Shown piece after piece: positions 32,057 through 50,422 of a stretch of 64,000 nucleotides of DNA. The position numbers were made by a program, and so were the translations under genes. How positions within the stretch are numbered: position 1 is the first letter of the stretch; each line of letters opens with the position of its first letter. Origin of the DNA: a virus; the IMG/VR virus record IMGVR_UViG_3300035034_001213, positions 9,034-73,033 of that record. One strand, given 5' to 3'. The notes below the pieces were generated by a model, which saw only the letters and a program-made list of their open reading frames with translations, was not told the origin of the DNA and did no database searches.

Positions 32057-32821
32057 TTATTTCGTTGATTTAAAGAACGTCTCACCCATCCAACCGATAG
32101 GATCGTACTTGTGAAAACGCACGGCCCCAGGTTTCTCATGATGATTGGCGTGCCAACAGTCTCCTAGAACAAAAGGAAACATCAACACGCTGTTGTGCGG
32201 TTCGTCGATGTGGTCTCTACCCCAATTGTGACCCCAAGTATTGGCGAGTGATTGGAGCTGCCAAGTTAAGGCCACGGGCGCCCAAACTAATGCAAGGGCC
32301 CAGACCGGCGGCAATAGAAACAACGCCCCAAAGAAGATAGGGCCGTAGATGTGCCAGTAGTGATTGTGGAACCACACGTGCCACTTCGATCGAAGAAGTC
32401 GTCCTGCGTGTCGGCCGCTGACCTTACGAAACGTGTACCCCAACAACTGAACCGACAACCAATGACTCCTCGCTGGGCTGTGAGGGTCACCAGAGAGCCC
32501 CTGATGCTTGTGGTGAGCATTATGAGTCGCTACCCATCCGAGTGTACTCCCCTGAAGAGACAGGCCGCCTATGAAGGTCAAGAGCGCTTCTATTGGCCAT
32601 GGGACGTTGACTGCGTTGTGAGTCAACACCCGATGGTACATGAAACTGATGCCCAACTGACTGATCACGTACCCCAACAACAACGACACACCCAACGGGC
32701 CCCAGGCACCTTGGATCATCAGTGCCAGAATCGATAGGTGACACAGAACGATCATAGCGTAGTGCATCACTCGGTTCATTGGCAGCGTTTCAATGTTCAG
32801 CGTTTGTAATAAGGTACTCAT
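32057..32821 (-). CDS. Membrane fatty-acid desaturase (delta-9/DesC-like), copy 6
   Basis: His boxes HRVLTH, HNAHH and HANHH; DPHSP motif; transmembrane segments. Confidence 0.9.
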   Translation of the reverse strand: MSTLLQTLNIETLPMNRVMHYAMIVLCHLSILALMIQGAWGPLGVSLLLGYVISQLGISFMYHRVLTHNAVNVPWPIEALLTFIGGLSLQGSTLGWVATHNAHHKHQGLSGDPHSPARSHWLSVQLLGYTFRKVSGRHAGRLLRSKWHVWFHNHYWHIYGPIFFGALFLLPPVWALALVWAPVALTWQLQSLANTWGHNWGRDHIDEPHNSVLMFPFVLGDCWHANHHEKPGAVRFHKYDPIGWMGETFFKSTK

Positions 32822-35937: not shown

Positions 35938-38295
35938 CTATTGACGATTGGTTAGCAAATCAAAGAGTTGATCAATTTGATTCTGCATCCCAGCCATCTC
36001 GACTTTCATCTCATCCAGTTCAGTGGATTTCTCATTGAAACCTTGAACCAATAGAGGTATGATGTCGGTATACGCCAGTGCTTTCTTATCATCTTCACGG
36101 TAACGCAGCAGCTCTGGAAAAACCTCCGCCGCCTCATGCGCCAGGAAACCAAAGCGTACCCGCCGCTCAGGGTCATCCTTGAAGATGTATTGCTTGGCCA
36201 ACAGTCGGGTCAATTTCTCACTGACCGGACCAATCGACTCGATCGCTTCTTTTAACGACTCATCTGACGAGTAGACAAAGTCCGCTGCCGTGATGATACC
36301 GGTAACCGTACTGTCTCCAGACTTCGTCACGTATTGAGAATCGTGATCGCCGCTCGTACGGTGGTCATTCATCGCTTTGGCTTGCAAGATAGTCGTTGTC
36401 GCACTCGACGTACGTGACGCGGTGGTCGGTTGATTTACTTCAGCACCAGTCTCTATGCCGTTAAGTTTCGACTTGTCACCGATGCTTTGGAAACCAGCGT
36501 CAGTCGTACTGGCCACAGGAACCGTAGCCGCAACGCCAGTCGACGACGTTATTGTTCGGTTATTGCCTGAGCCCCCAACCGCCAGATCCGTATTCACGTT
36601 CACTTCAGCGCCAGCTTCAACGCCGTCCAACTTGGTTTTATCGGACGAAGACATCCAACCTGCCAAGGTAACCGTTGCACTACCGATGCTGGTATTGCTA
36701 CCCGTCGACGACGTGATGGTCACTGATCCGGCAGCTCGATTCACCCCCAGATCAGTGCCAACGTTCACTTGGGCACCAGCGGCGATTCCGTTAAGTTTCG
36801 ACTTGTCGCCGATACTCATAAAACCAGCGTCTGTTGTCGTAACAACCGGTACTGCAACGTTACTGCCGGTGCTGGAGGCGAGCGTTAAGCTGTCGCCGGT
36901 TCCCGTCAACGAAAGGTTTGTGTCAACGTTGGGTTGCGCACCAGACTGAACGCTGTTTAACTTGGTTTTGTCCGCCGAAGTTAAAAGTCCAGCGGCAGCG
37001 GTTGTTGCCGAAGGGAGAACAACGTTCGTACCGTTGCTGTTGGTGATTGTAATGGTGCCTGAAGAGACCGACTTGTCAAGGTTCGTTGAAACGTTGACTT
37101 GTGCTCCGACTTCAACCCCAATTAACTTATCGTAGTTAGCAATCGACATCAAACCCGCTGTGGTGCTGGACGACACAGGTAACGCGACATTCGACCCGGT
37201 GGAAGATACGATAGTCCTGGCGTTGCCACTGCCACCTAAGGACAAGTTTGTGTTGACGTTAACTTGTGCTCCGGCAGCGATGCCTGAGAGTTTGGTTTTC
37301 TCAGCCGCGGTGTAGTCCTCGCTGGACAGTCCTTTACCAGAAATCTTATCGACCTTGCCGTTCAAAGACGCGTCGAGTTGGGTCTGCGTGTAATACCGTG
37401 CGTCGTGGTCGGCACTCTGGCGGTGGTTGTTCATCCCCGCTGCTTGAAGTACCGATGTGGTACTGGTACTGGTTCGAGACGCCGTAGTGGTTGGGTTTAC
37501 CTGTGCCCCAGCGGCAATGCCCGACAACTTGGTAAATTGAGCGGGGGACATCAACCCTGCGTCGACTGCATCTGCCAAGTCTAAGACAAACCCAGTACCG
37601 TTGCTGTTGGTGATAACGTACGAGGTGGCACTGCGAGTAACCGATAGATTACTATTAATGTTGCTTTCAGCACCTGGCTGGATGCTGTTTAGCTTAGTCA
37701 ACAGGGCGTCGGTAAAGTCGTTCTCGGACAAGGCCTTGCCCGTTACCTTATCGACTTTGTCGTTCAAAGCGGTCCCCAACCCTGAGATTGAGGCGATCGA
37801 CAGATTGTCTAGGTCTGCCCGGTTGAGCTTGATGTAATCGACAATTTCTTGCAACTCATTCAGCGTTGTATCGTCACTGTTGATGAGTGCGTTGATTTGA
37901 TCGACCGCATCTTTAAGAACCTTGCCCTGGGCGGCAGACAGGGGTACGTCTGTGCTGGTGCTGGTGAGGTTGTCGACGATGGACGAAATATCGACCTTCA
38001 AAGCCAAGGCCGCGTCCGCCAGCGTCTTCGTGTAGTATCGAGCGTCGTGGTCGTCGCTGGCGACGTGATCAAAAATACCCTTAGCCGTCAACAGACTGCC
38101 TTCGCTATTGATGGTTCTCAACGAAGTAATGGCGTTTGGCAATTCACCGAGGCCTACTTGGGCCTTAGTGACAGCGTGTGGATTCGACGTATCGGCGATG
38201 TGCGTGTCTGTTGAGACGAGGAGAGTATCGAGCTTCTCCTTCAATGCAGCAAAGACGGCATCGATCGACGACTTAAGCTGAACGTTATCGGTCAT
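35938..38295 (-). CDS. Tail fibre protein with C-terminal intramolecular chaperone (peptidase S74)
   Basis: NPHAVTKAQVGLG motif, roughly 55-aa AGxMSxxDKxKLxGIxxGAxVN repeats, and the chaperone motif SSDESLKEAI..FGFLAHEAAEVFPELL..LAYTDIIPLLV. Confidence 0.9.
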   Translation of the reverse strand: MTDNVQLKSSIDAVFAALKEKLDTLLVSTDTHIADTSNPHAVTKAQVGLGELPNAITSLRTINSEGSLLTAKGIFDHVASDDHDARYYTKTLADAALALKVDISSIVDNLTSTSTDVPLSAAQGKVLKDAVDQINALINSDDTTLNELQEIVDYIKLNRADLDNLSIASISGLGTALNDKVDKVTGKALSENDFTDALLTKLNSIQPGAESNINSNLSVTRSATSYVITNSNGTGFVLDLADAVDAGLMSPAQFTKLSGIAAGAQVNPTTTASRTSTSTTSVLQAAGMNNHRQSADHDARYYTQTQLDASLNGKVDKISGKGLSSEDYTAAEKTKLSGIAAGAQVNVNTNLSLGGSGNARTIVSSTGSNVALPVSSSTTAGLMSIANYDKLIGVEVGAQVNVSTNLDKSVSSGTITITNSNGTNVVLPSATTAAAGLLTSADKTKLNSVQSGAQPNVDTNLSLTGTGDSLTLASSTGSNVAVPVVTTTDAGFMSIGDKSKLNGIAAGAQVNVGTDLGVNRAAGSVTITSSTGSNTSIGSATVTLAGWMSSSDKTKLDGVEAGAEVNVNTDLAVGGSGNNRTITSSTGVAATVPVASTTDAGFQSIGDKSKLNGIETGAEVNQPTTASRTSSATTTILQAKAMNDHRTSGDHDSQYVTKSGDSTVTGIITAADFVYSSDESLKEAIESIGPVSEKLTRLLAKQYIFKDDPERRVRFGFLAHEAAEVFPELLRYREDDKKALAYTDIIPLLVQGFNEKSTELDEMKVEMAGMQNQIDQLFDLLTNRQ

Positions 38296-39148: not shown

Positions 39149-40024
39149 CTAAGGGGTAAGTGTGGGTAATTGGGAAGGATTGATGTCGCTGTTCAGAGCA
39201 AAGTCAGACACTGCGTTCTCATCAATCGCTCTGGATAGATCCCACGTGCTGAGGTCGTCTGTCATACCGGTACTGTTGGCAAAGAATGAGTTTGCATTAG
39301 CGATGTTGGTGGTCGTCCAATGCGCCAGCCGCAAGGGTTCAACCAATGACGTCCCACGGAACATATTCGAGGCATCGGAAGCGGTTCTGAAATGAGGCTC
39401 GTCTGTGGCCGTGACGCTGAAGTTTCTCTTGGCGTCGAACGCGTTGGCCCAATTGTCCATAATGAACTCAGCACCCCACGCCTCGATATCCACCAACCAA
39501 TCTCGGTCGTCTATCAAGCTGCCGCTGGAGTCGTAAGAGCCTTCGGCAGTGCCTGTGACTCGAACTCGGTAACTCCCAGGCTCCTCGTACGTGTGTGAGG
39601 GTTTGGCGCCATTAACGAAATCCTCCATGCTACCGTCGCCCCACTTGATCGTACCGGTGAAGTTAATAAAGCTTAACTCCACAGTAGCGTTCTCAGCATC
39701 GACCTTATCGGTCTTCACCAGCCAGACCATTGGATTGCCCAAGATACCGGTCATCAAAATAGCGGCAATCTCACTGCGTCTCAACTCGCCCATCAATTCT
39801 GGGTTTGAGAAGAACTCGTCGGTGAACATCGATGGGTTGTCCCGTTTAGCTTGAAGTACTACCCACGCAAAAGCATCGCCTTCGTTTTGCGCTAAGGATA
39901 GAGCCGAATCAAGATTCGCTCGAGTAATAAGACCGTCAGCAAAATCGAGAACGGCCTGCTTGTAGGCATCGATCGCTGAGTTCATCTCGGTACATTTAAC
40001 GTTTACATCTGCCAGCGTTGCCAT
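39149..40024 (-). CDS. Putative virion surface protein: PKD/Ig-like domain plus DUF285/BspA-like repeats
   Basis: IKWGDGS..SHTYEEPGSYRVRVTG (PKD); NMFRG..LAHWTTTNI..DDLSTWDLS (DUF285-like). Confidence 0.7.
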   Translation of the reverse strand: MATLADVNVKCTEMNSAIDAYKQAVLDFADGLITRANLDSALSLAQNEGDAFAWVVLQAKRDNPSMFTDEFFSNPELMGELRRSEIAAILMTGILGNPMVWLVKTDKVDAENATVELSFINFTGTIKWGDGSMEDFVNGAKPSHTYEEPGSYRVRVTGTAEGSYDSSGSLIDDRDWLVDIEAWGAEFIMDNWANAFDAKRNFSVTATDEPHFRTASDASNMFRGTSLVEPLRLAHWTTTNIANANSFFANSTGMTDDLSTWDLSRAIDENAVSDFALNSDINPSQLPTLTP

Positions 40025-40065: not shown

Positions 40066-40097
40066 AAGAGGAGGCCCGAAGGCCTCCTCTATTTTTT
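40066..40097 (-). terminator. Hairpin terminator after the desaturase array
   Basis: AGAGGAGGCC-CGAA-GGCCTCCTCT; on the minus strand the loop is TTCG. Confidence 0.75.
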
Positions 40098-40901
40098 CGT
40101 CGCGGCTTTCAAAACATCGCTCAAATCGCAGGCGTCGTGGCCACGTCTAGGTTTCTTTATCAACCAAATTACCCAAGCGGCTGGATCGATCTCCCACCAT
40201 TTTATTTGCGTGTTCCAACGAGTTGGATACATGTGATGGTTGTTGTGCAGTCCATCGCCTAAAGTCATTACGTGCATAAACCAACTGTTTCTACTTTCAT
40301 CGGTTGTGTCGTAGTTACGGTACCCCCACTGATGTCCAGCAACATTGAACAGTCCTTTCAGATGAAACATACACGCAGCCGGAATGCAGTATGCGTAAGC
40401 TGCGATCTTCCAATCAATCAAAGTCAGGACAAGGCTGAACATCAATAGAATAGGTACGTAGTATTTATGCGTAAACTTGAAGAAGGGGTCTTTCAGTTCT
40501 TTCTTGATCAACCTGAGTTCAAGGTGCGGTACGTAATCGGTCCAGTCGCTGAACCACGACGTTAAAACCCCTCGACCAACAGGACTGTGAGGGTCCTTCT
40601 CAGTGTCTGTGTGCTTATGATGCGATCGATGGACCAACGTGTTGGTCAACGGTGAGGCGATGGTGCACAACATACCACAGAAGATTAGAAGATACCGAAT
40701 AGGTGCGTAGGTCTCAAACGAGTTGTGGGCAAGCATGCGGTGGTAGCCTATCGTGACTCCTAAGAATCCGTATGTTAAATAGGCGATCAACGAGACCTGA
40801 AGCCAAAACCACCAACCATTATACACTGCCGCAGAAATGAACGACAATGCTCCAATCTGCAACGCGAGCTGCAAGTACTTCAGTTGTCGAACTTCAGACA
40901 T
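40089..40901 (-). CDS. Membrane fatty-acid desaturase, copy 5
   Basis: His boxes HRMLAH, HRSHH and HNNHH; WWEIDP. Confidence 0.92.
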   Translation of the reverse strand: MSEVRQLKYLQLALQIGALSFISAAVYNGWWFWLQVSLIAYLTYGFLGVTIGYHRMLAHNSFETYAPIRYLLIFCGMLCTIASPLTNTLVHRSHHKHTDTEKDPHSPVGRGVLTSWFSDWTDYVPHLELRLIKKELKDPFFKFTHKYYVPILLMFSLVLTLIDWKIAAYAYCIPAACMFHLKGLFNVAGHQWGYRNYDTTDESRNSWFMHVMTLGDGLHNNHHMYPTRWNTQIKWWEIDPAAWVIWLIKKPRRGHDACDLSDVLKAATKK

Positions 40902-40913
40902 TAGTCTTCTCCA

Positions 40914-41672
40914 CTATGTCGGTTTTTTGATAAGCCAGATTATCCAAGCCGCTGGGTCTAGTTCCCACCAGCGAATTTGAGTGTTCCAACGACCGGGGTA
41001 TTTATGGTGGTTGTTGTGCCACCCGTCGCCGAACGACAATATGTGCATTGGCCAACAGTTGCGACTATCCTCGTCAGTATCAAACGATCGATACCCCCAG
41101 GAGTGACCGAAGACGTTTGAAAACCCTTTGTAATGATAAAAGAACAAAGCCGGTACGCAGTACAAGTACACAGCTACTTTCCAATCAACCAATGCCAGCA
41201 TTACCACAAACAACAATAAGATTGTAGCGTAATGTTGATGCGTGAACTTAAAGAAGGGGTCTTTCAACTCCTTTCTAGCGGTTCGAAGATCTAACTTCAA
41301 ATCAATGCCCATCCAGTCTCCAAACCAAGTTCCTTTGTATCCCATTACGCTTGGACTGTGTGGGTCCCTAGCTCGGTCTGTGTGTTTGTGATGCGATCGG
41401 TGAACCAGTACGCCAGTCAACGGTGAGGATACCGAACACAGCATTCCACAGAAGATCAGCAGATACCGAATGGGAGCGTAGGTCTCAAACGAGTTGTGGG
41501 CAAGCATGCGGTGGTAGCCTATCGTCGTTCCAAGAACACCCACAACAAAATACACCAATAGTGCCCAACCAAACCACGACCACATCTCTTGATAGATCCC
41601 ATAAGGAATGGCCACAATCGCAATCGCGTGTGTGGCGATTTGAAAATATTTCAATTTGGTTGACGGTTGCAT
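40914..41672 (-). CDS. Membrane fatty-acid desaturase, copy 4
   Basis: His boxes HRMLAH, HRSHH and HNNHH; start ATG 41672 overlaps the upstream stop. Confidence 0.92.
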   Translation of the reverse strand: MQPSTKLKYFQIATHAIAIVAIPYGIYQEMWSWFGWALLVYFVVGVLGTTIGYHRMLAHNSFETYAPIRYLLIFCGMLCSVSSPLTGVLVHRSHHKHTDRARDPHSPSVMGYKGTWFGDWMGIDLKLDLRTARKELKDPFFKFTHQHYATILLLFVVMLALVDWKVAVYLYCVPALFFYHYKGFSNVFGHSWGYRSFDTDEDSRNCWPMHILSFGDGWHNNHHKYPGRWNTQIRWWELDPAAWIIWLIKKPT

Positions 41673-42430
41673 TAGTACCTCGGTTTCTTTATCAAACGGA
41701 TAACGACGGTTGGAATATCGACTTCCCACCAACGATCCCAGTTGTTCCAGTCGTTAGGGCGTGCATGATGATTGTTGTGAAATCCTTCACCGCCTAATAA
41801 CCAAGACACTAGCAACGAGTTGACTGACGCATCGTCCGTATCGTAGTTTCGATAGCCCGACGTATGGATCCACGCGTTTGCAAAACCAAAGAGGATTCTT
41901 AGTAATGCAATCGGTAGTGCATACGCAAACAAAAACAAACGCCAATCGATGACTAACAGCAACGCTACCCAACTGTAGATGATCTTAAAGTACTGGCGGT
42001 GAAAGAACAACATGTCTGGATCTCGAGTCAGATCCCGTATCGAACGAGGCGAACACTTCGACGTATCCATACCGATCGAGAACCAGGCTCTGAAGAACCC
42101 CATTGTCTTAGGACTGTGTGGATCTCCAGGTTTATCTGGGTACATGTGATGGGTTCTGTGTACCATGGCCCAAGTGACTGGTGAACCAAGACACATCAAT
42201 GTACCACAGAACAGTAGAAACCACCGAACCGGAGTGTACGTAACAAAGCTGCGGTGCGATACGTATCGATGAAAGCCAACCGCGTTACCAAAGACGCTGA
42301 GAGTCAAGTAAACTCCCAACGTCCACCACAGCCAATGCCATTGCTGACTGTGGATTAGGTAAGTAACCGCGACTATTCCAAAGACCGCATTGAACATCGT
42401 CAGTATGTTCGACTTGCGAGCTTCAGTCAT
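41672..42430 (-). CDS. Membrane fatty-acid desaturase, copy 3
   Basis: His boxes HRYVSH, HRTHH and GEGFHNNHH; GGAG RBS before ATG 42430. Confidence 0.92.
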   Translation of the reverse strand: MTEARKSNILTMFNAVFGIVAVTYLIHSQQWHWLWWTLGVYLTLSVFGNAVGFHRYVSHRSFVTYTPVRWFLLFCGTLMCLGSPVTWAMVHRTHHMYPDKPGDPHSPKTMGFFRAWFSIGMDTSKCSPRSIRDLTRDPDMLFFHRQYFKIIYSWVALLLVIDWRLFLFAYALPIALLRILFGFANAWIHTSGYRNYDTDDASVNSLLVSWLLGGEGFHNNHHARPNDWNNWDRWWEVDIPTVVIRLIKKPRY

Positions 42431-42440
42431 AGAGGTTCTC

Positions 42441-43238
42441 CTAGGCGGTTCTGTGTTTGGGCAAAGGATGACCACGATGATGAATCAACTTAATGACCTG
42501 AGCCGGAATGTCCCATTCCCACCAACGTTCACGTGTATTCCACCGCGACGGATGCGCGTGATGATTGTTATGCCAACCTTCACCCATGGTCATGACGTTA
42601 GCGATCCAACTGTTCAAGCTGGTGTCGCCTTCCAACTGATGGTTACGATACCCATGAAGATGTGGGATGACCACGATACCGCTGGCGCTGTGTAATGACA
42701 ACACGGCCGGTAAAGCGTAGACGAAAGCTACCCCTTGCCAACCCAAGGTCAGGAACAGCAAGAGCGTCCAACCTGCCAACACATGGAAGTAGTAGTTATG
42801 CGTCCAGATGTATAAGGGATCCCGTCTCATCGTCTTCGAGACTCGACCAGCTTGTCGAAATCCTGAAGTATTCCAAGCACCGAACCATGCTTTCAATGGT
42901 CCTATGGCGTGTGGACTGTGCGGGTCGTGTTCACCATCCGTGTGAATGTGGTGGATGCGATGCACAATGGACCAGGCCATCGGAGAACCCACGGTAGTGA
43001 TGATGCCACAGAACATCAAAACGTATTCAACCGGTCGGTATGTCTTAAACGCCCCGTGCGCTAAGAAACGATGAAACCCAACATTGATTCCTAGGATACC
43101 GATTACCCAATAGGTCAACCATGCGGTCAACAACCACATCCATTCACCCATGTAGATCGCCCAGCCCACTGCAGGAATGGCAATTAGATGCGTGACTACT
43201 TGGAGCAGTCGTACACCGTTGTTGTGTGTCAATTTCAT
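42441..43238 (-). CDS. Membrane fatty-acid desaturase, copy 2
   Basis: His boxes HRFLAH, HRIHH and GEGWHNNHH. Confidence 0.92.
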   Translation of the reverse strand: MKLTHNNGVRLLQVVTHLIAIPAVGWAIYMGEWMWLLTAWLTYWVIGILGINVGFHRFLAHGAFKTYRPVEYVLMFCGIITTVGSPMAWSIVHRIHHIHTDGEHDPHSPHAIGPLKAWFGAWNTSGFRQAGRVSKTMRRDPLYIWTHNYYFHVLAGWTLLLFLTLGWQGVAFVYALPAVLSLHSASGIVVIPHLHGYRNHQLEGDTSLNSWIANVMTMGEGWHNNHHAHPSRWNTRERWWEWDIPAQVIKLIHHRGHPLPKHRTA

Positions 43239-43240
43239 TA

Positions 43241-44002
43241 CTACCCTCTCTTCTTGATAAGTCGAATAAACATTGCGGTAGGATCAAGTTCCCACCATCT
43301 ATGTTGAAGATTCCATTGACTGGGAAACGTGTGATGGTTGTTGTGCCACCCTTCGCCAACCGATAAGATGTTGCAAAGCCAGCTGTTCTTTGAATGATCG
43401 TTATCTGGGTAGTTTTGATACCCCCAAGAATGACTCATAATCGATAGACAGAAGCCTACTACGAACGAATGCAGCGCCGCTGGAACGATGTACACGGCCA
43501 GAAGCCACTCAGGCCCTCCGAACAATAACAGTCCAAGACCATAAAGCGCATTCAATAAAAAATAATGCGTGTGAACCCAAAACATGATCGGATCACGAAC
43601 CACGTCTCTGACGGAAACCCGCCGGTCTTGCATGTCGACGTATTTCAAACACAGAAGCGCTTTCCAGAAACCCATGTGACGATGACAATGTGGGTCCTTA
43701 GGCGTCTCGGTATAACGATGATGAACTCGATGCATCCAGGCCCAACTGATGGGAGTTCCCATCGCCAAAGGCACACTCATCAACGCCATGATCAATTCAA
43801 TGGGTCGGTACGTCTTGTAGCTTCGATGCGAAACGTATCGATGCATGTACGCGTTGAACCCAATGCATTGTTGAACACAATAGACACCGAGGGTTACCCA
43901 GAGCAACTCAGGGAAGGCCACCGCCAAGTAGATAACACTTGGAATAAACGCTAACCATAACCCGTTTCTAAAGACGTTCAATCGTTGTACGCTATACTCC
44001 AT
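43241..44002 (-). CDS. Membrane fatty-acid desaturase, copy 1
   Basis: His boxes HRYVSH, HRVHH and GEGWHNNHH. Confidence 0.92.
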   Translation of the reverse strand: MEYSVQRLNVFRNGLWLAFIPSVIYLAVAFPELLWVTLGVYCVQQCIGFNAYMHRYVSHRSYKTYRPIELIMALMSVPLAMGTPISWAWMHRVHHRYTETPKDPHCHRHMGFWKALLCLKYVDMQDRRVSVRDVVRDPIMFWVHTHYFLLNALYGLGLLLFGGPEWLLAVYIVPAALHSFVVGFCLSIMSHSWGYQNYPDNDHSKNSWLCNILSVGEGWHNNHHTFPSQWNLQHRWWELDPTAMFIRLIKKRG

Positions 44003-45188
44003 ATCTGGTGACTCCTAAAACACTGTTCAATCCACCAAAGCCAAATGCGTTCTTGATAAACGAATTGACTGGACCAGTAACTTGGTGTTTGGGAAGGTTA
44101 ATCGGTTTTATGTCGGGGTCAGCTTCGAATTTACCGTTTGAGATGATAAACTCATACTTCATTTGATACAAGCTGTAGATCAACTCAATAATGCCAGACG
44201 CCGTGAGGGTGTGACCAATCAAACGTTTAAACGCAACGACTGGAATCTCATTGCCAATCACGTTTGAGATTGCTTCTGCTTCAACGACATCGCCATTAGG
44301 GGTTGAGGTCGCGTGTGCTGAGATGAAATCCGGACGGTGTCCCAACATAGCCATCTTACCTAAAACCTCAGACATGGACGCTGAGGCCCCCTCACCGGAA
44401 GGGTTCGTCATGTCTTCGCCGTCTGAATAATCAGCGTAGGCTATAGGCTGACCATACGCTTTAGTACCACCACGTTGACGGAAGTATTCTTCCGATTCGA
44501 GAATAACACACCCGCCACCTTCACCATGTGTAAACCCACCACGATGTTTGACAAACGGCACACTGGCGTACGCTAGGTCGTCGCCTCGATAGAGTGCTCT
44601 CATGGCATCAAAGCCACGCATACCCTCATCGATGTATTTTTCAGTACTTACACAAATAACCACATCTGCACGACCAAGTTCGATCAGATCCATACCTTGG
44701 GTCACCGCGCGTAGTCCTGTAGCACACGCGTGTTGCACTGTGTGCGTTGGGCCTTTCAACTTAAGAACGGTAGAGAGAGGTCCAGTTACAACCGTCGGAA
44801 GAGTCTTCATGAGATCAAACGGTTTGACCCGTGGGAAGTCCTTCTGAACAATACTACGCATGGAAGGCATGTCGCCAGCACCGCTGCCTGAGCACAAGGC
44901 TACTCGTCGAGTATTTATGTCGTCTAAACACAACCCCGCGTCCGCTAATGCGTCTAGTACTACTGCGTAGGAGATGTTTAAATGATCCATTTGATAACTA
45001 CGAGGAATCCCGGGCGCCAGTAACCGTGAGTCGTCAATGCATTTGGAAACACTGCTCGCCTTGTTCCTGGGATCGTTACTTTCGTACCGTTGGATCGAAA
45101 CTGTCTCTTGTTTCAGATTGCCAACAATTTCTCCCTCCCAACGTCCAATTGAGGTAATACACCCCACACCCGTTATTACACAACTCAT
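43992..45188 (-). CDS. Beta-ketoacyl-ACP synthase (FabB/FabF-type ketosynthase)
   Basis: VITGVGCITSIG, catalytic HAC(ATG), GEGGG, SAHATST, KRLIGHT and NAFGFGG; the Cys-His-His triad is intact. Confidence 0.92.
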   Translation of the reverse strand: MSCVITGVGCITSIGRWEGEIVGNLKQETVSIQRYESNDPRNKASSVSKCIDDSRLLAPGIPRSYQMDHLNISYAVVLDALADAGLCLDDINTRRVALCSGSGAGDMPSMRSIVQKDFPRVKPFDLMKTLPTVVTGPLSTVLKLKGPTHTVQHACATGLRAVTQGMDLIELGRADVVICVSTEKYIDEGMRGFDAMRALYRGDDLAYASVPFVKHRGGFTHGEGGGCVILESEEYFRQRGGTKAYGQPIAYADYSDGEDMTNPSGEGASASMSEVLGKMAMLGHRPDFISAHATSTPNGDVVEAEAISNVIGNEIPVVAFKRLIGHTLTASGIIELIYSLYQMKYEFIISNGKFEADPDIKPINLPKHQVTGPVNSFIKNAFGFGGLNSVLGVTRYGV

Positions 45189-45245: not shown

Positions 45246-45773
45246 CTAGATGTACTCGATCTCGATAGCCCCGACCTGCGCGCCATTGGACCCAGCATTG
45301 ATCGTAACCGGTGTACCGCTTAGGGTAATGATTTCAACACCCACAACCGGCTGGCCATCGATATCGATATCACCCTCGGCTACAGAGAGAAATCCCAATA
45401 TCGACAGAGTCGTAGATTCGTTGGGACCGAGGATTAGGCGATGCGGTGCCAGCTGTCGATGGTTGGTGTTAAACGTATCTAGACAATACCCAACGGTTCC
45501 GTCTTCCTGAATGGTCATTCGACTCCAATGTGCATTGTGGGTTGTTTGGAAAGGGGTCGATGAGGTGATCAAGTCTTCTCTGAACGTGTTTGTCTTTAAA
45601 ATACTACCAGAGACTATGAACCGACAGTCGTTCGTGGGGACGTAGTCATCAGCTTCCACTTCTACGTGAGTCGGCTGTTCACCGAAAATAATAGATTCCC
45701 CAGTGTCGCCAATAAAGAAAGCAACCGCCACATCACCATCTGGCAGTTTTAAACGATTTAGACGCGTTCTCAT
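45246..45773 (-). CDS. Hypothetical beta-rich protein (possibly cupin-like)
   Basis: 175 aa, beta-strand-like pattern, inside the cluster. Confidence 0.6.
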   Translation of the reverse strand: MRTRLNRLKLPDGDVAVAFFIGDTGESIIFGEQPTHVEVEADDYVPTNDCRFIVSGSILKTNTFREDLITSSTPFQTTHNAHWSRMTIQEDGTVGYCLDTFNTNHRQLAPHRLILGPNESTTLSILGFLSVAEGDIDIDGQPVVGVEIITLSGTPVTINAGSNGAQVGAIEIEYI

Positions 45774-45783
45774 TATAACCCCT

Positions 45784-46338
45784 TCATTCTTTTAAATAAA
45801 CATCAATAGGTATCGCAAGTCTAAGTCCAGGCTCGTGATTCTCAACGCTGTGCTGTAAGTACGATGGAAAGATAACCAGACCGCCGTGTTCGGTTTTGTA
45901 TTTGTACGGCTGAAAGTGATTGTTGATCACATCCGTTGGGTATCCTCGAGACGCCAGTCCTCTTGGGTCAAACAAAGTTAAATACCCTTCCCTTGCCTCC
46001 AAGTAATAAATTGCAGAAACGTGGGCACCGCTGTGGTGGTGGATTGGTGTCCCGCACCCGTCGCTGCTGTTTCTTACCCAGCCAGTCCAGCTGTCTAGTA
46101 AAGGTTCGTAATTAAACTGATCCCAGGCGTACTGCATGATCTTGGGGATCAAGGTCTCCTCTACAAACTCTTTCAGGTTCGGGTACTGTCTTAGATGCAA
46201 ACTTCTGGTGTCGTCGATTGGAAGTCCGTCGGTACTCCTCGGTTGCATCATCGCTTCGTAAATCAACGTTTCGTGCTGTTTAGAGACGACCGAATCTTCA
46301 CGTATCGCGACAGTCCATGGATGAACGTCAATTGTCAT
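45784..46338 (-). CDS. 2OG-Fe(II) oxygenase (TIGR02466/PF13759-like)
   Basis: HHHSGAHVSAIYY, FDPRG, VIFPSYLQHSV and RLAI. Confidence 0.85.
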   Translation of the reverse strand: MTIDVHPWTVAIREDSVVSKQHETLIYEAMMQPRSTDGLPIDDTRSLHLRQYPNLKEFVEETLIPKIMQYAWDQFNYEPLLDSWTGWVRNSSDGCGTPIHHHSGAHVSAIYYLEAREGYLTLFDPRGLASRGYPTDVINNHFQPYKYKTEHGGLVIFPSYLQHSVENHEPGLRLAIPIDVYLKE

Positions 46339-46347
46339 GGAATATCC

Positions 46348-46914
46348 TTACTTAGGTTTACTCAAGTACAAATCGACTGGAATAGAAATTCTCATCTTTT
46401 TATCATGTCCGTCAACGTAGTGTTGAAGATACGACGGGAATACAAGAAGCAATCCTTCTTTTGGATCTTCGCTGAACAAATTAAAAAATTCATTCCGAAC
46501 CACCGTCGGGTATCCTCGGCACGCAGACCCTCGGGGGTCGACCAGATTGAGTGCGCCGCCATTGGTAGTTAATGGATAGTAGATCGCTGACAGAACGGCC
46601 CCACTGTGTTCGTGAAGTTTCATACCTTCGCCACCGGTCGTTACTCGGACCCAAGCGTTGTATGTGTACTCCACGGCTTCTAATTCCCAGTGCTCGTAAA
46701 GATACGACAGCAGCGCTGGGAGAACTCGATCTTCAAGCATCCGATGGATCTGTGGAAACGTCTTTAATGAAACGGTGTTGTCATCCAGATCCAGATCGTC
46801 GAAGTTTCGGTTTGTAGACCGTATCAGCGCTTCGGTTATCAATTCGTCGTTGTCTACGTTTTCGAGTATCTCCCGACGGACCACTGTCCGCCATGGTTCT
46901 ATATCTTGAAACAT
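46348..46914 (-). CDS. 2OG-Fe(II) oxygenase (TIGR02466/PF13759-like), paralog
   Basis: HEHSGAVLSAIYY, VDPRG, VFPSYLQHYV and RISI; GGAGG RBS before ATG 46914. Confidence 0.85.
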   Translation of the reverse strand: MFQDIEPWRTVVRREILENVDNDELITEALIRSTNRNFDDLDLDDNTVSLKTFPQIHRMLEDRVLPALLSYLYEHWELEAVEYTYNAWVRVTTGGEGMKLHEHSGAVLSAIYYPLTTNGGALNLVDPRGSACRGYPTVVRNEFFNLFSEDPKEGLLLVFPSYLQHYVDGHDKKMRISIPVDLYLSKPK

Positions 46915-47324
46915 GCGGCCTCCGCCATACACTCGTCTTTGAAATATTGGACCGTGAAATCCACCCACCGACCTTTTAGGGGAATGTTCTCAATGCCCCC
47001 TAAGGCCTCCAATATGATGTCGTACGATTCCTTGTCTTGGGTGTAGGGTACAAAGTATTCATCAGTTCCGTATAAAAGCATGGGGTCGTTTAAGACCTCA
47101 TAGAACGGTTCGTTGAAGTGTTCCCAAAGTAACCGAGAATAAATCAAAGCAACCGCGTATGACTTTCCTGGATAAACCGATTCTTCCCGAGGGTCTAACA
47201 AATACTCCAAAGCCGGACCTACGACGTCTTCTCGATCAATGATCGTCTCAAAGTTTTCGACAGCGTCGGTGTGGACTTGGGTCATAAGGTGATATAGCTT
47301 CTGATTGGCTTTCCATTCTTTCAT
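46899..47324 (-). CDS. Hypothetical protein in the radical SAM cluster
   Basis: 141 aa, translationally coupled on both sides. Confidence 0.7.
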   Translation of the reverse strand: MKEWKANQKLYHLMTQVHTDAVENFETIIDREDVVGPALEYLLDPREESVYPGKSYAVALIYSRLLWEHFNEPFYEVLNDPMLLYGTDEYFVPYTQDKESYDIILEALGGIENIPLKGRWVDFTVQYFKDECMAEAACFKI

Positions 47325-48409
47325 GAAGCACGCCGCTCCCAGTTAAACTCTTCACGCATCTCCCTTGCGGTTGAAATACAGTGTTCGGAGTCGGTAATGG
47401 TCATCACTTTCTGGACTCCCCGCTCAGCGCACTTGGCAATGAACTCACACCCGTCACAGATGCCGTTGGTTTGCGCCAACGACAGACACTCGATCATACC
47501 GTCCTCTTCTTGACGAAAGATGTTCTCGAAGGTCCAGGGACCGTCCACTCGATGCTCCGGTTCAAAGGAGGAGAAGGCTTCCACAATGAACGGAGGCACA
47601 AACATCTCACCGTTGCGGTACACCACGTCCCAGTCTTCCCCTTCGTTCATCTGCAACTCAACGATTTCGAAATGTTCCTGACGCTCGTTCGCAGCCATCC
47701 GTGACTGGATAAGCAACCGGTTTAGGTGTTCAAGACTGGACAGGAAATTTTCTTGATTGACGGGATCTCTGAGGCTCTCTCGACCGTGAGGAAGAATGAA
47801 ATCGCTGTGCGACGTCGGATGGAGATTGACGTGGTACGCTCGAGTAAGGATGTCCTTAGTCAGAGTGAAGCCGCGTTTATGATCGTTGGCGATCGACTCC
47901 TCAAAGTTAACGACGCTGTAGACTCGAGTGATCTTAACGGTACTTAAGCAGCTTTCGAAATACGCCACCCTGTTACGAATGCCTTCGATGTACGCTGGGT
48001 TGTCAATGTGACGCACCTCAAACGGCACCGTAAACTTCAGAAGACCGTTAGGAATCAACGCTTCGACTTGTTCCGCCAACTTTTCATAGACCTCAGGTTT
48101 CGGATCTAGGAACGCACAGTTCAAGGTGGTCTTGAGAAACCGCTGAGCAATCTGCTTGATCCTCGGGTGTTCCAAGATCAAGTTTTTGTTCTCGGAGCTG
48201 AGGATGTCTGTGGGACCCAAGATAAAGTTGAGGACCTCCAACTCAGCGGTTTCAAAGGTATCGATCATTCGATCAATGCGATCAAACTCTTCAAGGGTTG
48301 GGAATCGATTGTCTTCTTTCTCAACCATACATCCCGAACAATTGTGTCGACAGCCACTTGCGATTTCCATAGTGAAGTCGATTAACTTATTAACTTGTGA
48401 CTTGTGCAT
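47321..48409 (-). CDS. Divergent radical SAM protein with a C-terminal Cys cluster
   Basis: CRHNCSGC (CxxxCxxC); C-terminal CDGC..KC..C; no GGE motif. Start moved to ATG 48409. Confidence 0.75.
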   Translation of the reverse strand: MHKSQVNKLIDFTMEIASGCRHNCSGCMVEKEDNRFPTLEEFDRIDRMIDTFETAELEVLNFILGPTDILSSENKNLILEHPRIKQIAQRFLKTTLNCAFLDPKPEVYEKLAEQVEALIPNGLLKFTVPFEVRHIDNPAYIEGIRNRVAYFESCLSTVKITRVYSVVNFEESIANDHKRGFTLTKDILTRAYHVNLHPTSHSDFILPHGRESLRDPVNQENFLSSLEHLNRLLIQSRMAANERQEHFEIVELQMNEGEDWDVVYRNGEMFVPPFIVEAFSSFEPEHRVDGPWTFENIFRQEEDGMIECLSLAQTNGICDGCEFIAKCAERGVQKVMTITDSEHCISTAREMREEFNWERRAS

Positions 48410-48413
48410 AATT

Positions 48414-49469
48414 TCACCAACTGCATTTATAGCTGAGTTTACCGAGCACCGACAAACACTCATGCGTTCCTAATAACCTCTGTACTCGATGTACCCCTCG
48501 AGTTGCGCACTTGCTGACAAACCGACACCGAGAACATTCGTTAGATTCACCAGCACGGGTGATGGATTCGAAAAAGGTCTCTTGATCGGCCTGTTGGATC
48601 TTGTCAAGTGTCCAGGGTTTCTTGAATTTGAAGTCGTCGTGAAAAATGGTGATCGGACTGTTAATAAGGGGGGCTATATACAGGTCGCCATTGCGATACG
48701 CCAGATGATAATCGCACCCAACGTGCTCACCCAGATCGTCGATCTTAAACTCGTACCCTTTGTCCACCTGATTGGCAAACATTTCGTTTTGCTTCAAGAT
48801 GGTTCTTAAGAACTCTTCTCGGTCTTCGTTAACCGACAGGTCACGGCGGCCGTAATGAAACACAAACGTGGTGGTGTCTGACTTTTCAAACAACTCGATG
48901 TGTCGGGTCTTATGGAGCGTCTCTTCACTGACAACGCCTTTGTCCATCAGCGACTCGGTCATATTCACGATCGCGGTAACACTCCCGATCCCCACCGACT
49001 TCAGATTTTCATTCAACCAGTTGATGCGACCCCGGAGCTTTTCAACGTACCCCAAGTTGTCGTGATGCTTTAATTCGAAGGGTACCAGAAACTCCGCGTT
49101 CAACCCTGGCATAAACGCCTCGAGCTCTTCAGCAAACTGAACGTACGCGTCCGGATCGGGGTTCAAGAAGGAGCAGTTGAACACCACCGACTTAAACCCT
49201 TTTAACATCTTTCGAACCGCAGGGTGAGTTAATACGTCTTGTCGATTGCTGGCGGACATGATGTCTACCGGTGCAAACTCCATCCAAGACATCTCCCATC
49301 CACGACTGCGTACGTCGTCAATAATCTCACTGAGCGCTGCGAGATCGGCTTCTGTGTATGGGGTAATGTCTTTGGTGTTAACGCTGCACCCAGAACACCC
49401 GTAGTCACAGTCTTTTAACAACTCCAGCGCTAGATTGCCGATGTTGTCCCCTCGAACCATGGTTGTCAT
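48414..49469 (-). CDS. Divergent radical SAM protein, paralog of 47321-48409
   Basis: CDYGCSGC; C-terminal CSRC..KC..C; shares (C)xFLxP.P..Y and VPFE motifs with its neighbour. Confidence 0.75.
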   Translation of the reverse strand: MTTMVRGDNIGNLALELLKDCDYGCSGCSVNTKDITPYTEADLAALSEIIDDVRSRGWEMSWMEFAPVDIMSASNRQDVLTHPAVRKMLKGFKSVVFNCSFLNPDPDAYVQFAEELEAFMPGLNAEFLVPFELKHHDNLGYVEKLRGRINWLNENLKSVGIGSVTAIVNMTESLMDKGVVSEETLHKTRHIELFEKSDTTTFVFHYGRRDLSVNEDREEFLRTILKQNEMFANQVDKGYEFKIDDLGEHVGCDYHLAYRNGDLYIAPLINSPITIFHDDFKFKKPWTLDKIQQADQETFFESITRAGESNECSRCRFVSKCATRGVHRVQRLLGTHECLSVLGKLSYKCSW

Positions 49470-50422
49470 TGCGATTCAGCCCATTTTAACAAATGTAGAA
49501 ACCCGTTGCACGAGTGCGTCGTATCGGTGACTTTACGAAGATGTTCAGACAAACACTTACCGGCGTAGTCACATTCCGAACACTTGGAATCAAGTACCTT
49601 GAGCTTCTCTCCTGCACACCAACCAAAGTATTCCTCGATACTGTCCAACTCCAAAAAGTATTCGTTGTCTTGTTCATCAAAGTCCAAGACGCCGAACTTC
49701 CCAGTTGGGGTGATGTAGACGTGGTCGTCGGAGAACGAATGTCCCCGACCTTCCAAACAATCTTGTATGTTCAACGCGTTCACAAAATCAAACTTCATCT
49801 TATCTTGGCGCTTGTACAACACCTTGATAAACGCCTCGTAGTCGTGATAACTCACCGGCAGTTGATTGGCTTGATTAGGACTGTACGGCTTGATCTCTAC
49901 CGACGTGAGATTTGACAACAGGTTTAACGTGTTGATGATCTCATCTGGGTCTTTCGCCATTACTTCGGGAGTAGCCAACATCAAAATCGAAAAGTCGCGT
50001 TCCATTTTTAACATCTGCTGAAAGACGTGGTCGTGCTTTTCTCGAGCCTCAAAGTCGTAGCTCACTGAGATGCCCCAGCTCACGTCGTGGACCGCAGGAT
50101 TGTTCATGGATAGATTGGTGATGATGTTAAGATCGTCAATCCCACGATCGTGTAACCCGTCCTTCAGTGCGCCGATGTATTCCGGTGGCAACAACAAAGG
50201 TTCGCCACCGTACAGATCCACCATCTCTACCTTCCGGTGAATCATTACCTCATCGATCCGATCAAACAACCGATGCAACGTCAAGCGCTTCTTGTCGCCG
50301 AGTTGTTCTGACGTGAGATAACAAAACCCACATCGGAAATTACAGAAGTACGAAGGATTAATGCTAAGATTAATCGGAATCTCAGGTAACGTCAAAGAGT
50401 TTGAGTTCATCGTTACTCTCAT
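49466..50422 (-). CDS. Radical SAM protein with a C-terminal Cys cluster
   Basis: CNFRCGFC, YGGEP, TNLS; C-terminal CSEC..C..C. Confidence 0.9.
   Translation of the reverse strand: MRVTMNSNSLTLPEIPINLSINPSYFCNFRCGFCYLTSEQLGDKKRLTLHRLFDRIDEVMIHRKVEMVDLYGGEPLLLPPEYIGALKDGLHDRGIDDLNIITNLSMNNPAVHDVSWGISVSYDFEAREKHDHVFQQMLKMERDFSILMLATPEVMAKDPDEIINTLNLLSNLTSVEIKPYSPNQANQLPVSYHDYEAFIKVLYKRQDKMKFDFVNALNIQDCLEGRGHSFSDDHVYITPTGKFGVLDFDEQDNEYFLELDSIEEYFGWCAGEKLKVLDSKCSECDYAGKCLSEHLRKVTDTTHSCNGFLHLLKWAESQ

Follow-up and report, generated by a model that had tools for sequence, protein, structure and literature searches.

Six diverged delta9-type desaturases and a ketosynthase in a phiKZ-type jumbo phage: a possible module for remodelling host acyl chains

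Why would a bacteriophage carry six membrane desaturases together with a condensing enzyme of fatty-acid synthesis? These genes lie in a window of 64,000 nucleotides, the whole stretch of DNA analysed here, which is part of a 73-kb contig (estimated 27% complete) from a phage of lake water. An earlier note on this DNA had proposed that the desaturases act in sequence on one acyl chain to give a polyene or polyyne or, alternatively, that they remodel the host membrane or the lipid vesicle used early in phiKZ-type infection. It had set them against the single DesC-type desaturases of cyanophages, which are indeed the published state (PMC5776448). The cyanophage vFAD (Roitman et al. 2017, PMC5776448) is likewise a phage-borne delta9/DesC membrane desaturase with three His boxes, with a presumed role in changing the membrane lipids of the host; the only phage desaturases known to have been tested for function are of this kind, delta9 acyl-lipid desaturases acting on C16. 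By the description given there, vFAD is one gene in T4-like cyanomyophages, whereas here six copies from five ancient paralogue groups accompany a ketosynthase, in a jumbo phage of the probable chimallin type. Only single cyanophage desaturases were found in print, and our search of the literature returned no conserved multi-gene desaturase set in phages.

All seven genes proved to be intact and on the minus strand, at the positions first assigned to them. The block opens with a beta-ketoacyl-ACP synthase of the KAS I/II type (398 aa, 43992..45188), in which PF00109 and PF02801 are above cut-off. It is followed by Des5, a delta9/SCD-type membrane desaturase (253 aa, 43241..44002; PF00487 63.1 bits, His boxes intact); Des4 (265 aa, 42441..43238; 56.7 bits), a member of a widespread viral core clade with 1413 metagenomic relatives at E<=1e-10; Des3 (252 aa, 41672..42430; 59.8 bits); Des2 (252 aa, 40914..41672; 63.8 bits); and, last in the block, Des1 (270 aa, 40089..40901; 70 bits). 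The sixth and most diverged desaturase, Des6 (254 aa, 32057..32821; 45.6 bits, His boxes intact), lies about 7 kb off, near the endolysin, and adjoins a lead for a GT8-like glycosyltransferase. Between the ketosynthase and Des1, neighbouring genes overlap or are spaced by no more than about 12 nt, the Des5 start overlapping the ketosynthase stop by 11 nt. The start codons listed for Des2 (TTG at 41732) and Des3 (GTG at 42475, ORF 41672-42475) overlap their upstream genes; a better alignment fit was obtained with the ATG at 41672 for Des2, which forms a TAATG overlap with the Des3 stop, and with the ATG at 42430 for Des3, which is preceded by AGGAG. Directly after the Des1 stop lies a palindromic GC-rich hairpin with a 10-bp stem (40067..40090), followed on the plus strand side by ATTTTTT and on the minus strand side by a weaker T-rich stretch; it is the likely terminator of the desaturase block. 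Among RNA runs, none was found to contain this region. Several other families are tandemly expanded in this phage, namely tail-fibre-like genes, radical SAM genes and 2OG oxygenases.

By family membership, the six proteins are predicted membrane desaturases of the delta9 (SCD/OLE1/DesC) family. All of them exceeded the gathering score of PF00487 (29.7 bits), at 45.6-70 bits, and each has hydrophobic stretches of transmembrane length in its hydropathy profile. In a six-way alignment the three His boxes (HxxxxH, HxxHH and HxxHH; H54/H59, H91/H94/H95 and H219/H222/H223 in Des1 numbering) are invariant, as are H105, H145, H190 and N205, so that the eight box histidines and the TM4 histidine (H190) are kept in every copy. 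A profile of the six proteins matched the solved structures of SCD1 (4ymk_A, E 6.5e-31; 4zyo_A, E 7.6e-30). The phage proteins thus resemble SCD1, DesC and DesA in fold family, as judged from sequence matches of E about 1e-30, and in their box and TM4 histidines, but with about 250-270 aa they are minimal in size. Their closest cellular relatives, at 29-38% identity, are found in Cyanobacteria, Planctomycetota and Acidobacteriota, where the DesC-like gene is present as a single copy. The best NCBIfam model was the DesA delta9 family; its equivalog model NF049918 scored 38.4-89.5 bits, below the cut-off of 400 bits, with alignments spanning only about the first 230 of 385 model positions.

One residue near the metal site sets two copies apart. 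The Asn four residues before the TM4 histidine is kept in Des1, Des2, Des3 and Des6 and is replaced by Val in Des4 and by Ser in Des5. It aligns with the N of the SCD1 stretch LVNSAAH, which we take to be a water-mediated metal ligand. This Asn is found in all 73 cellular DesC-like rows of the alignment as opposed to 44 of the 90 other viral rows (absent in 46); its loss from Des4 and Des5 implies that the chemistry of these two enzymes may differ. Conversely, the His in the column of Des1-145 is typical of viral rows only.

The earlier note had described the copies as mostly well diverged, and all pairs have 26.5-41% identity except Des1 and Des2, at 60.6%. Des1 and Des2 are jointly sister to one gene in each of two sister phages (loci L001 and L002; genomes G001, complete at 222 kb, and G002), and on this basis they are, as judged by sequence, a younger duplicate. 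The sister phages carry the same block in synteny, and the desaturases fall into five ancient paralogue groups, each with one-to-one orthologues in both, which agrees with the view of retained, diverged paralogues. Identity between orthologues is 56-59% for Des5, 74-79% for Des4, 50-71% for Des3 and 67-76% for Des6, whose clade also includes L015, L036, L039 and L043. Orthologue dN was 0.16-0.46 and dS was saturated; in the three of eight pairs with a computable dS, dN/dS was about 0.06-0.11. The copies are thus more than simple dosage duplicates. The set is, however, not one strict operon, since in G001 a tail-fibre gene parts one desaturase from the rest and Des6 is always about 7 kb off. 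The phiKZ-type assignment of the phage was also borne out: the virion protein at 6475-9165 has a 30-34% match to phiKZ-like phages, and homologues of the phiKZ nuclear shell protein gp54 were detected in G001 (E 2.2e-37) and G002 (E 9.7e-36), none being found in the phage's own 73-kb fragment, which is 27% complete.

The ketosynthase is a diverged FabB/FabF-type condensing enzyme that is predicted to be catalytically intact. It scored 90.3 bits with PF00109 and 69 bits with PF02801 (cut-off 20.8). On alignment with E. coli FabF and FabB, its C155, H292, H326, K321 and F384 match C163, H298, H333, K328 and F392 of FabB, which we take to be the active-site columns; hence the Cys-His-His triad reported earlier is present, as Cys155/His292/His326. 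The two-domain KAS I/II architecture, the triad, the Lys and the gating Phe are common to this protein and FabB/FabF, but its identity is only 29% to E. coli FabF and 34% to E. coli FabB, and full-length bacterial relatives are at 34% or lower. Its best NCBIfam matches, fabF (236.8; cut-off 493.75) and FabB (208.5; cut-off 630), are below threshold, as are its scores for all NCBIfam equivalogs. In the tree a long branch sets it apart from both FabB and FabF, and it forms a clade of its own (support 100) with L001, L002 and 15 metagenomic relatives; only phage-like metagenomic relatives, at 43-72% identity, are found there. Unlike FabB/FabF systems, no phage ACP was found alongside it.

Does this block make a polyyne, as in the bacterial cay, pgn, ccn and collimonin pathways? 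The bacterial polyyne/alkyne cassette consists of jamABC plus two desaturases, a thioesterase and a rubredoxin (PMC8406139, PMC9828172), and three or more co-located delta9-type desaturases are given as its hallmark (PMC8406139). The phage, with five desaturases in tandem and one more nearby, likewise has several such enzymes side by side, and these are homologous to those of the cassette: in tblastn searches with canonical cassette proteins only the desaturases matched, with 23-35% identity over at least 174 aa. Nevertheless, neither the contig nor the complete genome of the sister phage G001 yielded four of the seven cassette genes. The earlier note had seen no ACP, acyl-AMP ligase or thioesterase in the window, an impression confirmed with Pfam models and tblastn, and its suggestion that an ACP might be encoded elsewhere in the genome received no support from the sister genomes: PF00550 had no match in the contig, in G001 or in G002, and five ACPs used as tblastn queries gave no hit. 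PF00501, the model for acyl-AMP ligases, matched nothing, whether in the contig (E<=1) or in G001 and G002 (E<=0.1), and the FAALs of S. goshikiensis and B. gladioli gave no hit by tblastn. Thioesterase (PF00975) and rubredoxin (PF00301) had no match in G000, G001 and G002, nor did the thioesterase-family protein, the rubredoxin and the alpha/beta hydrolases of the cassette give a hit as tblastn queries, the hydrolases being covered by tblastn. More broadly, no PP-binding, AMP-binding, thioesterase, rubredoxin, FabA, 2Fe-2S ferredoxin or cytochrome b5 family exceeded its cut-off in either the 73-kb contig or G001.

The phylogeny called for in the earlier note points the same way, as it placed the phage enzymes outside the polyyne (JamB) desaturases. 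Six cassette desaturases from the B. gladioli and S. goshikiensis plasmids group with an unannotated copy on a Ralstonia plasmid (L164) in a clade (support 99) that includes no viral sequence, and a branch with support 95 divides it from all 40 viral rows; FastTree on 189 rows gave the same separation. The viral, cassette and DesC-like groups are separated by the tree without their order being settled, the branch joining viral and cassette sequences having a support of only 75. Moreover, the cassette as described has no ketosynthase, whereas the phage block does. Polyyne assembly therefore seems to us scarcely credible.

Tandem desaturase arrays are, on the other hand, common in uncultivated jumbo phages. 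Two or more desaturases were present at 30 of 79 viral loci compared with 1 of 80 cellular loci, and copy number at related viral loci ranged from 1 to 11. The arrays of L060, L057, L038, L044 and L012/L056, for which we found no description in the literature, also line up diverged delta9-type desaturases in tandem, and some of them include a ketosynthase. Of the 79 viral records with a desaturase, five also had a ketosynthase gene, and all five belong to the 30 loci where desaturases are multiple. These ketosynthases fall on at least two unrelated branches of the tree, those of the other arrays being unrelated to the clade of the enzyme at 43992-45188, so a ketosynthase joined such arrays at least twice independently. 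Several of these phages also encode an ACP, FabA, SDR, PP-loop ATPase-like, ATP-grasp, Rieske or rubrerythrin protein of their own. In L012 two desaturases adjoin a ketosynthase, an ACP, a FabA-type dehydratase and an SDR reductase, the last four being components of a type II fatty-acid synthase. ACPs lie in or adjoin the arrays of L060 (embedded among 11 desaturases), L044 and L012/L056, and near arrays in 7 of the 35 records tested, suggesting that the substrate is ACP-bound at least in those named, as in dedicated pathways. In the sisters of the present phage a chimallin homologue is present, but not in any of the 21 other viral records with these desaturases, among them two with a length of about 355-360 kb and a completeness of 91-100%; remodelling of the early phiKZ-type vesicle thus fails as a general reason for the arrays.

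With moderate confidence, we propose that the block is a phage-encoded module that remodels host acyl chains by means of paralogues of different specificity. The ketosynthase would have to use host acyl-ACP and malonyl-ACP, given that no phage ACP was found. The six di-iron, four-helix desaturases would insert into the host inner membrane and probably receive electrons from host carriers, a dependence suggested by the failure to find a phage electron carrier. Each of the five groups most likely has its own specificity, be it for double-bond position, chain length, sn-position or head group. Their joint effect would be to raise and diversify the acyl unsaturation of the host membrane during the long jumbo-phage infection, the products remaining in membrane lipids; what the phage might gain from this is a matter of conjecture. 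Several points weigh against this reading. Since a single desaturase suffices for cyanophages, six conserved, non-redundant copies call for more than simple fluidisation; at the arrays with an ACP the substrate looks ACP-bound; and the loss of the near-metal Asn may mean a different chemistry.

The same genes could instead serve a dedicated product, the ketosynthase and the ordered desaturases working in series on one chain held by a host ACP to give a polyene or otherwise oxidised speciality lipid (a natural product, a signalling or a toxic lipid) and not bulk membrane. The conservation of five anciently diverged, ordered groups in three phages favours this, as do the second lineage, L057/L060, with pairwise orthologues in the same order, the repeated recruitment of ketosynthases and the ACPs at the arrays. 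Three delta9-type desaturases have been reported to cooperate on one ACP-bound chain (PMC9828172), and the near-metal Asn that is lost from Des4 and Des5 is also lost in two of the six cassette desaturases. Yet no ACP, loading ligase, thioesterase or release enzyme was matched in this lineage, even in the complete sister genome, the set is interrupted as noted above, and the genes next to the L012 desaturases are those of an ordinary fatty-acid synthase. We regard such a product as unlikely, although by no means negligible. To its bolder extension we lend a similarly minor credence: several jumbo-phage lineages would build multiply unsaturated acyl chains, possibly conjugated or otherwise oxidised, by a pathway of their own, in which an ordered series of 5-11 diverged delta9-family desaturases and a ketosynthase act on an ACP-bound chain. 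If true, some lineages would encode the complete pathway, with an ACP, a dehydratase, a reductase and, as a possible loader of the carrier, a PP-loop enzyme; in the chimallin-type lineage studied here it would be pared down and run on host ACP; and the virus would be making a speciality lipid, as opposed to fluidising membranes in the ordinary way.

It seems improbable that the paralogues all perform the same reaction, tuned to different hosts, electron donors, temperatures or lipid compositions, with only some mattering in any one infection, as in a host-range or bet-hedging family comparable to the tail-fibre paralogues. The tandem expansion of other families in this phage, the variable copy number among related loci and the apparent reliance on host electron donors are consistent with such a set, but the same five groups persist one-to-one in three phages at 50-79% protein identity, which fits fixed distinct roles better than turnover. 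Enzymes of the PF00487 type include hydroxylases and enzymes for other lipids. This breadth, the unusual near-metal substitutions and the glycosyltransferase lead beside Des6 leave a slight chance, which we rate as very low, of hydroxylase activity or of substrates such as lipid A acyl chains, hopanoids, carotenoids, quinone tails or sphingolipid-like bases; against it, all sequence evidence leads to the delta9 acyl desaturase subfamily, and the co-occurring ketosynthase, ACP, FabA and SDR genes point to fatty acids.

Directly upstream of the block, on the same strand (45246..46968), lie genes for a 175-aa protein of unknown function and for two paralogous PF13759 2OG-Fe(II) oxygenases. They are neighbours of the block and at most candidate members of the functional unit; they are syntenic in L001 and L002, except that the 175-aa gene is placed elsewhere in L001.

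The window covers bases 9034-73033 of a linear viral contig of 73,033 bp, whose completeness was estimated at 27% by CheckV. The genes under study lie on the minus strand. In the order of transcription, a series of radical-SAM-like genes (from 55963 to 47321) and a gene for 141 aa are followed by two 2OG-Fe(II) oxygenase genes of the PF13759/TIGR02466 type (46348-46968 and 45784-46338, just upstream of the ketosynthase), a gene for a 175-aa protein without family (45246-45773, directly upstream of it), the ketosynthase (45188-43992) and five desaturases in the order Des5, Des4, Des3, Des2 and Des1, ending at 40089 and followed by a GC-rich hairpin with a 10-bp stem (40067-40090). The sixth desaturase, Des6 (32821-32057, minus strand), is located about 7 kb beyond this block, between a 307-aa gene and an endolysin gene.

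The earlier note had placed these seven enzymes from the sequence alone, describing an intact Cys-His-His triad in the ketosynthase and three intact His boxes in each of the five tandem desaturases, most copies being well diverged from each other. A six-frame search of the whole contig found exactly six PF00487 matches, all above the cut-off and free of internal stops (45.6-70 bits against a Pfam cut-off of 29.7). In the six-way alignment the eight box histidines were invariant in 6/6 copies, as were H105, H145, H190 and N205 (Des1 numbering), and except for Des1 and Des2, which are 60.6% identical, all pairs shared 26.5-41% identity. The ketosynthase has both KAS domains, and its Cys155, His292, His326, Lys321 and Phe384 fall at the active-site columns when aligned with FabF and FabB as given in the E. 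coli K-12 record, the columns being marked by what we take to be the catalytic positions of these two enzymes. With intact domains, invariant histidines and the active-site residues in place, the observation is therefore confirmed. The tabulated starts of Des2 (TTG) and Des3 (GTG) probably lie too far upstream: ATG codons at 41672 and 42430 agree with the alignment, and starting there the genes either overlap the preceding stop or have a Shine-Dalgarno-like spacing.

The same block was present in two sister phages, at locus L001 of record G001 (222,493 bp, direct terminal repeats, 100% complete) and locus L002 of record G002 (170,557 bp, 62% complete). All three have in common the radical-SAM genes and those for the 2OG oxygenases, the ketosynthase, Des5, Des4, Des3 and one protein of the Des1/2 type, together with a tail-fibre gene, 324-aa and 307-aa genes, Des6 and the endolysin; the block proteins of the window share 33-81% identity with those of the sister phages. 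In both desaturase trees each paralogue of the window grouped with one L001 and one L002 gene (support 98-100), so that the part of the earlier interpretation which regarded the copies as distinct, retained paralogues stood. Des1 and Des2 formed a pair, with one counterpart per sister phage as its sister group, a topology that identifies them as a lineage-specific duplicate. In G001 the tail-fibre gene separates the Des1/2-type gene from Des3, and therefore the desaturase set is conserved, though not as one indivisible operon. Orthologue dN was 0.16-0.46; as dS was saturated in five of eight pairs, only three dN/dS ratios were usable (0.06-0.11).

The assignment of the window to the phiKZ-type phages, also made in the earlier note, was upheld on two counts. 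The virion protein encoded at 6475-9165 is 30-34% identical over 85-92% of its length to proteins of phiKZ-like jumbo phages (LucasX, FLC9, Xoo-sp14, Noxifer, KTN4 and others), and both sister phages encode near full-length homologues of chimallin, the phiKZ nuclear shell protein, with 25-26% identity (G001:C1:6391-8142, E 2e-37; G002:C1:167444-169003, E 1e-35). No chimallin homologue was found in the window's own fragment; the homologues of the sister phages suggest that the clade of the three is probably nucleus-forming.

A profile of the six desaturases matched the mammalian stearoyl-CoA desaturases (SCD) 4ymk and 4zyo at E ~1e-30, and no other PDB entry at E<=0.001. The top NCBIfam model was the DesA delta9 family, with a score far under the equivalog cut-off, and among the PHROGs only a single weak, unannotated family was matched. 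The closest genes among 185,579 species genomes were DesC-like, from Cyanobacteria, Planctomycetota, Acidobacteriota and related phyla (29-38% identity), and the closest proteins overall were metagenomic proteins of about 250 aa, mostly from short contigs (for Des4, 1413 relatives at E<=1e-10 among 1913 candidates); where their source names them, they are fatty-acid or stearoyl-CoA delta9 desaturases. Together, the structure matches, the DesA model, the DesC-like nearest genes and the names of the metagenomic relatives place the phage enzymes in the delta9 ("first desaturase") family, as compact representatives. The cyanophage vFADs, which belong to this family and are the published case of the single DesC-type desaturases mentioned in the earlier note, were reported as C16 delta9 lipid desaturases in the study of Roitman et al. 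(PMC5776448).

Two alignment columns vary among these enzymes. Asn186 of Des1, four residues ahead of the TM4 His (H190), aligns with the N of the SCD1 stretch LVNSAAH; an Asn was found here in 73/73 cellular DesC-like rows versus 44/90 other viral rows, and the residue is Val in Des4, Ser in Des5 and Thr or Gly in two of six desaturases from polyyne-type clusters. At the column of Des1 H145 a His is characteristic of the viral copies alone: it was present in all six window copies and in 65/90 viral rows, and the commonest cellular rows have Asp, Glu, Asn or Gln. The codons of Des1 N186 and H145 are at 40346-40344 and 40469-40467 of the window (minus strand).

In bacteria, polyynes are made by a seven-gene cassette comprising jamA (acyl-AMP ligase), jamB (desaturase), jamC (ACP), two further desaturases, a thioesterase and a rubredoxin (Mullins et al., PMC8406139), in a thiotemplated pathway in which three desaturases cooperate (Kim et al., PMC9828172). 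Searches with the AMP-binding, PP-binding, thioesterase and rubredoxin families of Pfam, which responded in control genomes, gave no match in the window's contig, G001 or G002. As comparators we used three plasmid clusters. One, from the linear plasmid NZ_CP108769.1 of Streptomyces goshikiensis (L163:4205-12718), is a textbook polyyne cassette with the annotated order thioesterase, FAAL (fatty acyl-AMP ligase), desaturase, desaturase, ACP, desaturase, alpha/beta hydrolase, rubredoxin and P450; the other two, from Burkholderia gladioli BSR3, contain FAAL, desaturases and ACP. A tblastn search of 327,321 bases (the contig, the whole of G001, and L002) with the cluster proteins matched the desaturases alone. 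The same bases gave no hit with any of five ACPs or with FabG, one FabA, one SDR and one PP-loop protein, taken from E. coli or other phages. The absence of ACP, acyl-AMP ligase and thioesterase remarked on in the earlier note thus extends from the window to the whole contig and to the complete sister genome.

Phylogeny pointed the same way. The cluster desaturases and one unannotated Ralstonia plasmid copy (L164) formed a clade of their own (support 99) in both a 189-row FastTree and a 67-row IQ-TREE phylogeny, each computed by fast methods, and all viral rows lay across a branch from it (support 83 and 95, respectively); the branch uniting viral and cluster rows had a support of 75, and the order of the viral, cluster-type and DesC-like groups was not resolved. 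The FastTree set was reduced from 237 rows by removing sequences shorter than 200 aa, L080 (a duplicate of L060) and any row with 85% or more identity to one that was retained; the IQ-TREE set comprised all window, sister and plasmid rows except the very long third desaturase of L163, plus 24 hand-picked viral and 18 randomly drawn cellular rows. With no ligase, ACP, thioesterase or rubredoxin found in the contig, G001 or G002, and with the desaturases outside the cluster clade, the array does not belong to the polyyne/alkyne cassette family, and the polyyne assembly proposed in the earlier note is not borne out. The chemistry of the desaturases themselves cannot be read from homology alone.

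A scan of viral contigs gave at least 589 confirmed relatives, of which the best 79 loci were kept (80 counting the window). Desaturase genes were counted over about 10 kb on each side at these 79 loci and within 8 kb at the 80 nearest cellular loci: a single copy was present at 49 viral and 79 cellular loci and two copies at 19 and one, respectively, and three, four, five, six and eleven copies were found at two, five, two, one and one viral loci and at no cellular locus. The viral loci are not independent, as 62 of the 80 (window counted) join one broad group through common neighbour genes, for which CheckV estimates imply genomes of about 350 kb; within it, the desaturases of L057 can be paired off with orthologues in L060, and their order agrees. 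The window stands in a group apart, with L001 and L002. Chimallin was sought in 21 desaturase-bearing records of other viral groups, G052 (354,959 bp, with terminal repeats) and G032 (360,469 bp, 91% complete) among them, and no homologue was found; this rules out, as a general explanation of the arrays, a link to the early vesicle, the alternative raised in the earlier note, or to the phage nucleus.

KAS-type ketosynthases were detected in five of these 79 best records (G001, G002, G015/L012, G058/L056 and G004/L060), all five with two or more desaturases, and PP-binding (ACP) genes in 7 of 35 records tested. The largest array, at L060:3782-19109, holds eleven desaturase genes in about 15 kb of one contig. 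Interspersed with them or flanking them are a ketosynthase (10732-11892), an ACP that is located between two desaturases (16504-16746), Rieske and ATP-grasp proteins, a rubrerythrin and a PP-loop protein like QueC, whose 305-aa family recurs in eight loci. At L012:8442-17957, to which L056 is related, two desaturases are followed by an SDR reductase, and a ketosynthase, an ACP and a FabA-like dehydratase stand in a row about 5 kb away; by gene content this jumbo-phage contig has a large share of a type II fatty-acid synthase. No ACP, FabA, SDR, Rieske, ATP-grasp, rubrerythrin or PP-loop companion was found in the window's lineage.

In the ketosynthase tree the window enzyme belonged to an 18-row clade (support 100) made up of the window, L001, L002 and 15 metagenomic relatives (43-72% identity). 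This clade has a single long branch and falls outside both the FabB clade (support 96) and the FabF group. The ketosynthases of L012, L056 and L060 were on a separate, very long branch, a topology indicating that ketosynthases joined desaturase arrays at least twice. A viral-contig search with the ketosynthase alone gave no match, the query patterns being too specific, and a metagenome scan with the alignment of its clade returned only two close loci, L184 and L185; as these have 100% DNA identity to L002 and L001, they add no independent lineage.

The window's lineage thus has seven intact enzymes of known families, which are retained as separate orthologue groups, and no partner of its own for carriage, loading, release or electron transfer was found. 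We consider bulk acyl-chain remodelling the most economical reading, and give it an even chance, because parts of a fatty-acid synthase accompany the arrays of other phages and the cyanophage enzymes have tested delta9 lipid activity. The ketosynthase would condense host acyl-ACP with malonyl-ACP, and the desaturases, residing in the host inner membrane and supplied with oxygen and with electrons from host ferredoxin-type donors, would introduce double bonds into the acyl chains; the five old paralogue groups may be distinguished by double-bond position, by the length of the chain, by sn-position or by the class of lipid.

The strongest rival holds that the ordered paralogues act serially on one chain, yielding a polyunsaturated speciality lipid. 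In its favour are the conserved paralogue order, the fact that ketosynthases were recruited more than once and the presence of ACPs within the arrays of other phages, but no carrier or release enzyme was found in the window's lineage, and we rate serial action as unlikely, at roughly one in five. Somewhat less probable still is that the copies are a compatibility or host-range set of desaturases, and action on non-fatty-acyl substrates seems improbable. True polyyne synthesis is the least credible of all.

We found no description in the literature of multi-desaturase tandem arrays or of ketosynthase-desaturase sets in phages. The phage desaturases found there are single copies, namely the cyanophage vFADs and one on a pelagiphage scaffold (PMC11480375); the sterol-type desaturases described for giant viruses (bioRxiv 10.64898/2026.03.26.714578) are not comparable. 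The DNA of 40089-45188 had no similarity match among cultured phages, and Des1 searched by tblastn against 50,697 phage records (E<=1e-5) hit three, two Acinetobacter phage MD-2021a assemblies and Pelagibacter phage Mosig. We rate as new the expansion of a viral auxiliary desaturase gene, known so far as the single genes of marine cyanophages, to a conserved module of several paralogues (six in the window) with a condensing enzyme in a jumbo phage of a chimallin-encoding, probably nucleus-forming clade. Tandem arrays of old, non-redundant paralogues, at times with carrier protein or fatty-acid synthase parts, are recurrent in many uncultivated jumbo phages and nearly absent from the closest cellular genomes, and point to lipid chemistry as a substantial, unexplored side of jumbo-phage infection. 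The array also provides a set of di-iron desaturases of very small size (about 250 aa), directly testable for specificity with E. coli or yeast as host; should their regiochemistry differ, the paralogues would be a natural series for how delta9-type enzymes shift position or reaction outcome.

As for expression, a sigma-70 promoter scan, which does not cover phiKZ-type promoters, gave 18 sites against 18.2 in shuffles, that is, no excess; no tRNA was found in the window. Six DNA sequencing runs contain the region or part of it, only one of them, which may be the source sample, with half or more of its words, and no RNA sequencing run containing it was listed.

The 175-aa protein encoded at 45246-45773 had no Pfam, NCBIfam or PHROG match. 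In the protein atlas it led only to unnamed viral clusters at 0.90 and to cupin-like proteins at 0.85, and its single-sequence AlphaFold model was unusable (mean pLDDT 30.4); its gene adjoins the ketosynthase in L002 and the 307-aa gene in L001. The 307-aa gene (32849-33772, minus strand) adjoins Des6, and the two stay together in both sister phages; Pfam gave no match for its product, and the atlas lead is to GT8 glycosyltransferases (0.95, with 175 features shared). The two 2OG-Fe(II) oxygenases (45784-46338 and 46348-46968) are 36% identical, and related genes occur in eight other viral loci besides the sister phages. Upstream, nine co-directional genes (47321-55963, minus strand) are syntenic in both sister phages; five have radical-SAM matches, weak in three of them, and a sixth is a paralogue of one. 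Two members resemble SPASM/twitch peptide or protein maturases, all under family cut-offs, and nothing indicates an action on lipids.

Just downstream of the desaturase block, a protein encoded at 39149-40024 (minus strand) has weak PKD and DUF285 matches, and the endolysin (30911-31723, minus strand) combines PG_binding_1 and N-acetylmuramidase domains. Finally, four tail-fibre-like proteins (35938-38295, 56534-58177, 60053-61198 and 62075-63934, minus strand) have repeat motifs in common, one of them with a Peptidase_S74 intramolecular chaperone domain, and represent another tandemly expanded family in this phage.
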